Origin: a virus
Lineage: Duplodnaviria; Heunggongvirae; Uroviricota; Caudoviricetes
IMG/VR virus record: IMGVR_UViG_2563366806_000004
Coordinates: 1-44,644 of that record
Direction: 5' to 3' (one strand)
Length of the DNA: 44,644 nt
A program made the position numbers and the translations under genes. Below the pieces are notes generated by a model that was not told where the DNA came from, did not search any database, and saw only the letters and a program-made list of their open reading frames with translations. The first letter of the stretch is position 1. Each line of letters begins with the position of its first letter. Of this stretch, positions 34,719 through 37,163 are shown one piece after another.

Positions 34719-34906
34719 CCTTCAACAGCCTGCCGGGCGGTGAAGATTTTATTCTTCGCCCGGCGCTTGCCTTCCATATTGACCAGAAAGACCTTAACAG
34801 CGGTGCGGTAGACCTTTGCCGCATCGCGCTTCTCAATGACTACCTCGACATGCGCGAGGATAACGACGCCCGGGTAGATAAATGGAGAGCGGCCAATGAG
34901 CGGTAA
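34661..34906 (+). other. Putative programmed -1 ribosomal frameshift site and -1 frame extension of the tail chaperone
   Basis: Slippery run GGGAAATTTTTTG (34661..34673) in the chaperone zero frame; -1 frame open for 82 codons to TAA at 34904..34906, overlapping the tape measure start. Confidence 0.55.
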
Positions 34907-37163
34907 CGCAGATACGATTAAAGATTTCCTTGTTTCGCTGGGATTCGATATCGATCAGGCTGGCGCTAATAAGTTTGAAGCCGTGCTGAAAGGCGTTACA
35001 GCTAACGTTCTGAAGGTCGGCGCGGTGGTGGAAGGCGCAGCGCTGAGCATTGTCGGATTTACCACTCAGATCGCGAACGGTCTGGATAAAATTTACTGGG
35101 CATCCCAGCGGACGGGGGCCAGTGTCCAGGGCATCAAAGCGCTGGGATACGCCGCATCGCAAACCGGTGCCAGCGCCGAGTCGGCTATGTCCTCCCTCGA
35201 AGGGCTGGCCGGTTTCATGCGTAGCAATCCGGGCGCGGAAGGCTTCCTGAACCGCCTGGGCGTCCAGACTCGCGATGCCAGCGGAAAGATGCGTGATACT
35301 GCGGCCATCTTTACTGGCGTTGGGCAAAAGCTCAACAACATGCCGTATTACCGCGCGAAACAATACGCGCAGATGCTTGGCATCGATGAAAACACGCTGA
35401 TGGCGATGCGGCGCGGCATGAATGGCTTTACCGCCGATTACCAGTCGATGCTGCAAAAGACAGGGTTCAACGCTGATAAAGCGGCTGTTCAGTCCAACAA
35501 ATTCATGACGTCCATGCGCGGGCTTACGTCGCTGTTCGGCATCATGCGGGACAAGATCGGCTCAAACCTCGCTGGTGGCCTGGCTGGTTCGCTGGACAGC
35601 CTGCGGCGGCGCATCCTCGACAATTTCCCGAAGATTGAAGAGACGCTGACCAGAGTTATTAAAGGCGTGATCTGGCTTGCGAACGCATTCACGAGAATGG
35701 CGTGGCGGCTGATACAGGGCGCTGGCTCTGTCATCGACTGGTGGAAGCGTCTTGACGATGGCAGTAAAAATCTGCTGAAAATATTCGGTGCTCTACTTGT
35801 CGCATGGCGTCTGCTTAATTCTGCGTTCCTGAAATCCCCGATTGGAATTATCACCACGCTGATTCTGGCGATCGGATTACTCTATGACGATTATCAGACG
35901 TGGAAAGAAGGCGGTAAAAGCCTGATTGACTGGTCCAAGTGGGAGCCTGCAATAGAAAAGGCGAAAAAGGCAATTCTCTGGCTGCGCGATAAGCTTCTGG
36001 GGCTGAAAGATTCTGTTGGTGGATGGCAGAACTCGCTGGAAATTTTGGCTACTTTCATCGCTGGGGTATGGGTAACAAAAGTATTGGGAGCATTCGCAAA
36101 AATATCCGGTCTTCCGATACCTCCATGGCTTAAATTATGGGGAGCGTATGCTGGTTACCTGGTTTCAGATCGTGAAAACATAAAAGCCAGTGCTAAATCA
36201 TCTTTGGACTATACCAAAAGGAACATTGGTGATGCTCTTGCTACGGTTGGCATCAAAACCGACCTTGGGCGAAAAGATGTTAGCGAGGTAAGAGAATGGC
36301 CCGCATGGATGGATTGGCTGCATGGTGGCCCAGGTAAGATTATTCGTCAGGCGCAAAGCAATGGCGTCGTTTATGGCGATAATGTTCAGCCTGACATTCC
36401 CGGGGCGGAACAGCATGTTCGTAGTAATGAAATTGCCCCGCATGAAAGAGATGAAATAAAAAACCGTCAGCAGGCTGCTAATGGTTATCTTGAAAAAATC
36501 TCAGACGGGATTGCCAAAATCGGTAATTTATTTTTCTCCCCGGCTGGAGCTGCTGAAATCTCTCCAAATATATCGGGTGACCCCTCCCAGTTTGCGCAAT
36601 CAGTCAAACGTCCACAGGCCACAGCCCAGGGCAAAGTATTGCTCGACTGGATGGGGCCAATGTTCAATAAACTTGAGTCGCTTTATCAACTTCCAGCTGG
36701 TCTATTGAAAAGTGTGGCGATAACCGAGTCAGGTGGTAACCAGTTCGCCATGTCCGGCGCAGGCGCGAAAGGTCTGTTTCAGTTTATGGATGGTACGGCG
36801 CGCGACATGGGCCTTCGCGGAAACGATGTATTCGACCCGCAAAAGTCAGCTCAGGCCGCAGCTAAGTACCTCAGCCAGCTGTTGCGGCAGAACGGCGGAG
36901 ACCTTAGCAAAGCACTGGCATCATATAACTGGGGGATCGGGAATGTTAAGCGCTATGGCATGGGGTTAATGCCGCAGGAAACGCGTAACTACATTCCGAA
37001 AGTAATGAGCAACATGCCCACCAGCGCCCCGGTGATTCAGCAGGAAACGAATATTAACATCCACGGCGTTTCCGATCCGCGCGAGGCTGCCCGTTTGACT
37101 GTTGATCGTCAAAAGGGCGTGAATTCACAGTTAACCCAGCAACTCCCCGCAGGACCGAGATAA
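34896..37163 (+). CDS. Tail tape measure protein with C-terminal lytic transglycosylase (SLT) domain
   Basis: 755-aa ORF after the frameshifted chaperone; C-terminal AITESGGNQFAMSGAGAKGLFQFMDGTARDMGL...YNWGIGNV resembles the SLT domain. Confidence 0.65.
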   Translation: MSGNADTIKDFLVSLGFDIDQAGANKFEAVLKGVTANVLKVGAVVEGAALSIVGFTTQIANGLDKIYWASQRTGASVQGIKALGYAASQTGASAESAMSSLEGLAGFMRSNPGAEGFLNRLGVQTRDASGKMRDTAAIFTGVGQKLNNMPYYRAKQYAQMLGIDENTLMAMRRGMNGFTADYQSMLQKTGFNADKAAVQSNKFMTSMRGLTSLFGIMRDKIGSNLAGGLAGSLDSLRRRILDNFPKIEETLTRVIKGVIWLANAFTRMAWRLIQGAGSVIDWWKRLDDGSKNLLKIFGALLVAWRLLNSAFLKSPIGIITTLILAIGLLYDDYQTWKEGGKSLIDWSKWEPAIEKAKKAILWLRDKLLGLKDSVGGWQNSLEILATFIAGVWVTKVLGAFAKISGLPIPPWLKLWGAYAGYLVSDRENIKASAKSSLDYTKRNIGDALATVGIKTDLGRKDVSEVREWPAWMDWLHGGPGKIIRQAQSNGVVYGDNVQPDIPGAEQHVRSNEIAPHERDEIKNRQQAANGYLEKISDGIAKIGNLFFSPAGAAEISPNISGDPSQFAQSVKRPQATAQGKVLLDWMGPMFNKLESLYQLPAGLLKSVAITESGGNQFAMSGAGAKGLFQFMDGTARDMGLRGNDVFDPQKSAQAAAKYLSQLLRQNGGDLSKALASYNWGIGNVKRYGMGLMPQETRNYIPKVMSNMPTSAPVIQQETNINIHGVSDPREAARLTVDRQKGVNSQLTQQLPAGPR

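Follow-up and report, generated by a model that had tools for sequence, protein, structure and literature searches.

Lysins carried on tape measure proteins are a recognised class of virion-associated lysins (reviewed in PMC6116005). Here, we compare the best described systems with the gene at 34896-37163 (+ strand) of IMG/VR virus record IMGVR_UViG_2563366806_000004, a Caudoviricetes sequence of 44,644 nucleotides (nt) that we refer to as the window. A preliminary description of the window had presented the product of this gene as a tape measure protein with a C-terminal lytic transglycosylase (SLT) domain. We find that it is very probably the modular tape measure protein of a temperate enterobacterial myovirus with a simple contractile tail of the Pam3/XM1/E217 type, and that its SLT domain probably acts at entry. 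As an SLT-bearing tape measure it is real but ordinary, and nothing about it is new.

In the Pseudomonas phage Pa193, a myovirus, gp41 (PDB 9b45) was identified by cryo-electron microscopy (cryo-EM) as a tape measure protein with an internal SLT domain at amino acids (aa) 491-582. Its residues 840-858 bundle with the tail tip protein gp44, and ejection is proposed by the authors to begin with the C-terminal part, supplying a periplasmic transglycosylase; other Pbunavirus tape measure proteins have the same architecture by description (PMC11456595). The SLT regions of gp41 and the window protein align (E=2.6e-09 in a whole-protein search), and no significant similarity outside this region was seen in the pairwise search. 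In gp41 (858 aa) about 270 aa separate the SLT domain, which is mid-protein, from the C-terminus; in the window protein this distance is about 50 aa. The window spike protein (40473-41213) is homologous to Pa193 gp44 and E217 gp43.

Sit of the E. coli myovirus P1 is a tape measure protein with its SLT domain near the C-terminus, like the window protein; this domain has been proposed as replacing a tail lysozyme of the T4 gp5 type (PMC9024508). The P1 locus matches aa 577-706 of the window protein at 40% identity, with the similarity confined to the SLT domain. Sit is 1140 aa long and its SLT domain spans about residues 750-900; the tail and baseplate of P1 are different and more complex. T7 gp16 also has an SLT domain, family-1-like and carried in the virion, whose ejection at infection parallels what we propose here, but gp16 is a capsid core/ejectosome protein of a podovirus, the domain is N-terminal and the protein is not a tape measure. 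The bacterial enzymes MltD, Slt/Slt70, MltF and MltE share the fold and the active-site motifs (E-S, G-L-x-Q, Y-N-x-G). They differ in being housekeeping periplasmic enzymes or lipoproteins, with accessory LysM or superhelical U/L domains, that are not part of a virion.

The window protein itself is already public: proteins identical or nearly identical to it are encoded by prophages of E. coli and further Enterobacteriaceae, and the representative P0002, with 485 member sequences, is 100% identical to it at the amino acid level. The gene is present in 43 of 5426 complete E. coli genomes, the best match being the prophage of E. coli PEC422 (WP_040062298.1), which has 99.3% nucleotide identity and the same flanking genes. 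In RefSeq this protein is called ‘transglycosylase SLT domain-containing protein’, with no mention of a tape measure, since none of the NCBIfam tape-measure models matches it. A 90% relative, P0013, does carry the name ‘tail tape measure’. Among isolated phages, Hafnia phage yong1 encodes a homologue with 70.9% amino acid identity in the same gene order (QIQ67963.1, ‘transglycosylase SLT domain protein’), which was found at the protein level; the sole megablast match in the phage collection was 515 nt of Citrobacter phage Omnitron. The yong1 protein is shorter (662 aa), and the difference lies in the variable middle region described below. A literature search on yong1 yielded nothing, including any electron microscopy tail length with which the 755 aa of the window protein might be compared.

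Tape measure identity and modular architecture

The gene is a single open reading frame (ORF), and both its coordinates and its length of 755 aa agree exactly with the preliminary description when checked against the ORF listing and translation. A Shine-Dalgarno sequence, GGAGAG, lies 6 nt 5' of the ATG, and the downstream gene begins with an ATG that has one base in common with the TAA stop. We considered a mis-called or fused ORF and rejected it, as start, stop and length are conserved in many genomes. The gene and the parts of its product, all on the + strand, are as follows.

34896..37163, + strand: tape measure protein gene, single ORF with ATG start, 755 aa plus stop (ORF listing, translation)
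34896..36020, + strand: conserved N-terminal scaffold, aa 1-375 (alignment of close relatives)
35004-35369, + strand: sub-threshold PhageMin_Tail match, aa 37-158 (PF10145, 20 bits)
36021..36581, + strand: variable middle region, aa 376-562 (alignment, and windowed identity against the relatives P0123, P0128 and P0129)
36606..37010, + strand: lytic transglycosylase (SLT, family-1-like) domain, about aa 571-705 (PF01464, AlphaFold2 model, Foldseek)
36726..36731, + strand: codons of E611-S612, candidate catalytic Glu-Ser pair (alignment with T7 gp16 and Slt; invariance)
37041..37160, + strand: conserved C-terminal tail, aa 716-755, with a predicted helix at aa 728-749 (local jackhmmer, AlphaFold2 model)

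With high confidence, on homology and gene position, we assign the gene to a tail tape measure protein, as the preliminary description had done. The PHROG 2276 profile, ‘tail length tape measure protein’, matches aa 1-754, practically the full length, with E=1.6e-219, and three further tape-measure PHROGs (12506, 8125 and 9570) also match. The similarity to gp41 of Pa193, itself assigned by cryo-EM, points the same way. The gene is the only long ORF between the sheath, tube and chaperone genes and the baseplate genes, and the tail block contains no second ORF of a length suited to a ruler. Tape measure genes are usually preceded by a chaperone gene with a -1 frameshift site, and the identification is strengthened because this gene directly follows a chaperone gene with a conserved -1 slippery site.

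The protein is modular, with an N-terminal scaffold, a variable spacer, the SLT domain with its catalytic E611 and a conserved C-terminal tail of about 40 aa. Among close relatives (72-100% identical, 670-765 aa), every insertion or deletion falls within aa 376-562, while aa 563-755 are nearly invariant. Hydropathy analysis picks out hydrophobic segments at aa 34-56, aa 293-330 (nt 35772-35885) and, in the middle region, aa 380-403 (nt 36033-36104), with Kyte-Doolittle maxima of 1.64-1.98 in a 19-residue window.

Several points weigh against the identification and the role that we attach to it. PhageMin_Tail (PF10145) stays sub-threshold on the window protein, at 20 bits vs a cutoff of 33.2, and NCBIfam gave no tape-measure model match, only sub-threshold transglycosylase matches. 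The literature searched yielded no biochemical or virion-proteomic reports on the protein or its close relatives. For the N-terminal part, the case for homology is made by the PHROG 2276 match together with the sub-threshold PhageMin_Tail match, the similarity to Pa193 gp41 covering the SLT region only. Finally, the middle region accounts for length differences of up to 95 aa in the family, so that either tail length varies or the middle region does not measure length, and the simple ruler model is provisional.

These points bear on another reading of the gene, as a ‘lytic tail protein’, an ejected enzyme encoded in the tail block that does not set length, with some other ruler or none. PHROG 2013, which carries that label, matches aa 370-747, the curated Pfam and NCBIfam tape-measure models stay below threshold and differences of up to 95 aa would be unexpected for a strict ruler. 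This reading is nonetheless very unlikely, given the full-length tape-measure PHROG match, the frameshifting chaperone gene upstream and the lack of a second ORF of sufficient length in the tail block. Moreover, the homologous relative P0147 exceeds the PF10145 cutoff (35.9 bits vs 33.2), and the Pbunavirus proteins that formerly bore the ‘lytic tail protein’ label are now recognised from cryo-EM as the tape measure (PMC11456595; PDB 9b45).

The SLT domain and its probable role at entry

The Pfam SLT search proposed as a check in the preliminary description returned PF01464 with E=1.9e-24 and 85.9 bits vs a gathering cutoff of 21.3, so an SLT profile match is in place and the domain call holds. 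We also considered a chance resemblance to the SLT motif, which this match led us to reject. The match spans aa 589-689 (nt 36660-36962) and profile positions 2-106 of 117. A sequence search of the PDB found only lytic transglycosylases and phage proteins containing them (Pa193 gp41, MltD, T7 gp16, Slt and Slt70).

We modelled aa 561-755 with AlphaFold2 from an alignment of 38 diverse sequences reaching down to 32% identity. The predicted local distance difference test (pLDDT) score of this model is 91.2, with blocks at 96-98 across aa about 571-700. An earlier run on aa 549-755 with 14 close homologues (73-99% identical) had a pLDDT of 41.7 and was discarded. In a Foldseek comparison of the model with the PDB, all of the top 50 matches are lytic transglycosylases, including MltD (8rhe; root-mean-square deviation (rmsd) 2.3 Å over 150 columns) and E. 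coli Slt70 (1qte; 1.9 Å over 141), with further matches to P. aeruginosa Slt (5ohu), MltF, MltE, T7 gp16 and phiKZ gp144. In the model, the SLT fold stops near aa 705 and is followed by a short linker and a predicted helix at aa 728-749. The preliminary description had the protein ending in the SLT motif; a position near the C-terminus is correct, but about 50 residues follow the fold, including the conserved tail.

Family-1 lytic transglycosylases are marked by a Glu followed by Ser, by G-L-x-Q and by A/S-Y-N-x-G. All of these motifs are complete in the window protein, as E611-S612, G626-L-F-Q629 and S676-Y-N-W-G680, and the motifs that had been quoted earlier are found in the translation (E611-S612 within TESGGN, GLFQF at 626 and SYNWG at 676). 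The 38-sequence alignment shows no variation at E611, S612, A624, G626, Y677 or N678. The counterparts of E611 are E37 in T7 gp16, reported to be the catalytic residue of that protein by Moak and Molineux (2000), a paper cited in PMC6116005, and E503 in P. aeruginosa Slt. The E503Q mutant of the latter is described as inactive (PDB 6fc4). Judged from its sequence, the domain has every visible mark of an active family-1-type lytic transglycosylase.

The domain could instead be inactive, or a structural or binding module only, such as a peptidoglycan anchor or a plug of the tube. A fraction of complete relatives (25/131) has no detectable muralytic domain, so this type of tail may not require one. 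We regard this reading as highly unlikely, since the active-site motifs, the Glu-Ser pair among them, do not vary in sequences down to 32% identity, the predicted fold can be superposed on active enzymes with an rmsd of 1.9-2.4 Å and the domains that replace SLT in other relatives also belong to enzyme families (Phage_lysozyme2 and one with a match to PDB 7q47, ‘Endolysin’).

The standard reading of an SLT domain on a tape measure protein is that a component of the virion cleaves peptidoglycan locally as the DNA enters (PMC9024508, PMC11456595, PMC6116005). From the observed ORF, domains, fold, motifs, gene context and homology, we infer the presence of the protein in the virion, its order of ejection, its enzymatic activity and a role at the membrane. 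At assembly, the frameshifted chaperone would help copies of the tape measure protein, a trimer by analogy with Pa193, to fill the lumen of the tube. The C-terminal tails would dock on the spike and hub, again by analogy with Pa193, and aa 716-755 are probably a docking element for the tail tip or hub. Sheath contraction would then drive the spike through the outer membrane, with the spike and the tape measure protein's C-terminal end exiting first. The SLT domain, probably extended or partly folded within the tube, would act on periplasmic peptidoglycan, cleaving MurNAc-GlcNAc locally to give 1,6-anhydroMurNAc and opening a passage for the tube and the DNA conduit. The hydrophobic segments may aid the crossing of the inner membrane, or a conduit through it. 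On this sequence evidence, the tape measure probably provides the prophage virion with a peptidoglycan-cutting activity of its own, as in P1 and Pbunavirus.

The timing of this activity can be judged from the lysis genes, which lie apart from the tape measure gene.

20821..22050, + strand: lysis cassette of holin, endolysin and Rz-like spanin (PHROG 126, 7 and 13)

Because this separate cassette, whose endolysin gene occupies 21065-21586, is present, the SLT domain is not needed for lysis and a role at entry fits. A late role, with the SLT domain serving as the endolysin for host lysis, could draw on the partial matches of PHROG 669 and 10475, both labelled ‘endolysin’, to the SLT domain. Those matches are confined to the SLT region, however, and the domain forms part of a 755-aa structural tail protein whose gene lies in the middle of the tail operon, so that, with a lysis cassette of its own in the window, the probability of a late role is close to nil.

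Beyond correct annotation, the significance of a probable entry-acting SLT domain here is small, the RefSeq name being silent on the tape-measure role. As a Gram-negative muralytic enzyme, the SLT fragment (aa about 560-755) would be a candidate for cloning.

A possible exchangeable domain slot in relatives

An exhaustive search of 50%-identity representatives found 958 proteins at E<=1e-30, of which the best 150 were analysed. The N-terminal scaffold is common to 147 of these 150 and to all close relatives. The C-terminal tail was found by local jackhmmer in 136 of the 150, whatever domain precedes it, with the consensus NQxTxIxVxGxxDPxxxAxxVxxxQxxVNxxLxRN. The slot between the two was classified in the 131 proteins that are complete at both ends, by local jackhmmer seeded with Pfam- or PDB-verified examples, which makes the following counts approximate.

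Phage_lysozyme2-like domain: 46/131 (Pfam-confirmed on two members)
SLT domain: 35/131
No domain detected: 25/131
‘RNNNPGN’ domain: 23/131 (without a Pfam match; PDB matches)
Two domains: 2/131

The RNNNPGN domain replaces SLT in the C-terminal ~180 aa of P0123, P0128, P0129, P0136, P0141, P0142 and P0147, with the motif RG(I/L)RNNNPGN...F..F.T...G......L..Y........I...WAP. Its PDB matches, with E about 1e-19, are 7q47 (‘Endolysin’) and the N-terminal part of 9vvp Gp29, and from these it appears to be a muralytic domain family that has no Pfam model.

That tail lysins can swap domains is, in principle, known. P0123 and the window protein share about 80% identity up to aa about 500, are unrelated across the cassette and resemble each other again in the tail, a pattern that points to exchange of the wall-cleaving module by recombination. 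Somewhat tentatively, and at a little below even probability, we suggest that the slot upstream of the conserved tail is an exchangeable cassette that can hold SLT, Phage_lysozyme2 or RNNNPGN, with the window protein representing the SLT allele. Because three muralytic domains alternate at the slot, wall-cleaving activity there is argued to be under selection, though not indispensable. The 25 of 131 proteins without a detectable muralytic domain count on the other side, as the domain may be helpful rather than essential for entry. The wall-cleaving activities of TM4 and of T7 gp16 are likewise reported to be helpful rather than essential, with defects that depend on the conditions. It is also conceivable that the roughly one-fifth of complete relatives in which no slot domain is recognisable might contain hidden, unrecognised muralytic folds.

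If true, the cassette slot would extend a known idea and open no new one. A survey of tail-associated lysins in enterobacterial prophages could take the pattern of SLT, Phage_lysozyme2, RNNNPGN or none as its guide.

Tail gene block and genome context

The tail genes follow the order sheath, tube, chaperone, tape measure, Dit-like protein, plug, hub and spike, and then the baseplate wedge genes. The neighbours of the tape measure gene are as follows.

32678-33838, + strand: tail sheath (PHROG 205, E=2.1e-129; PDB sheaths of XM1 and Pam3)
33849-34289, + strand: tail tube (PF11681, KPP10_Orf10)
34293..34718, + strand: tail assembly chaperone, 141 aa (PF21822, Phage_TAC_15, E=4.9e-33; PHROG 1688)
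34664..34906, + strand: predicted -1 programmed frameshift and extension (read from sequence)
37163-37777, + strand: Dit-like protein (Pfam Dit_like)
37710-38093, + strand: Pam3 gp18-like plug (Pfam Pam3_gp18)
38096-39157, + strand: hub (sub-threshold E217_GP41; PDB Pam3 hub gp19)
39576-40414, + strand: Phd/Doc pair inserted in the baseplate block, 37163..41213 (Pfam)
40473-41213, + strand: spike/tail tip (gpV N-terminal domain and Apex motif; PDB Pa193 gp44 and E217 gp43)

The slippery heptamer of the predicted frameshift, A_AAT_TTT, lies at 34664-34670 inside the chaperone gene. From there the -1 frame is open for about 80 codons to a stop at 34904-34906, which gives an 11-nt overlap with the start of the tape measure gene. 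Conservation in E. coli PEC422 and Hafnia phage yong1 extends to the sequence GGGAAATTTTTTG, which contains the heptamer, and to the open -1 frame; the yong1 chaperone gene has the same slippery site as the window. RefSeq annotates the extension as a separate DUF6889 ORF. In the window the start codon of that ORF reads ATA, and therefore the extension can only arise by frameshifting.

The plug ORF as listed overlaps the Dit-like gene by 68 nt, its Pfam match begins at residue 30 and the RefSeq homologue has 101 aa; by this comparison, the true start is probably downstream of 37710. The Phd/Doc pair sits between the hub-side genes and the spike gene. Its Phd-like antitoxin (PF02604) scores 28.3 bits, just under the cutoff of 29.8, and its Doc/Fic toxin (PF02661) matches with E=1.5e-11. 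In the PEC422 prophage this position is taken by a DUF4236 gene on the minus strand, and the site looks like one at which accessory (‘moron’) genes vary.

The window contains no tRNA genes. The genome is a mosaic in which a lambdoid/P22-like early region and the lysis cassette (positions 1-22000 of the window) are joined to a head and contractile-tail module of the Pam3/XM1/E217 type (positions 23000-44644). The left 22 kb is 99.2% identical to Escherichia phage CurroJimenez_Bas106 over 57% of its length.

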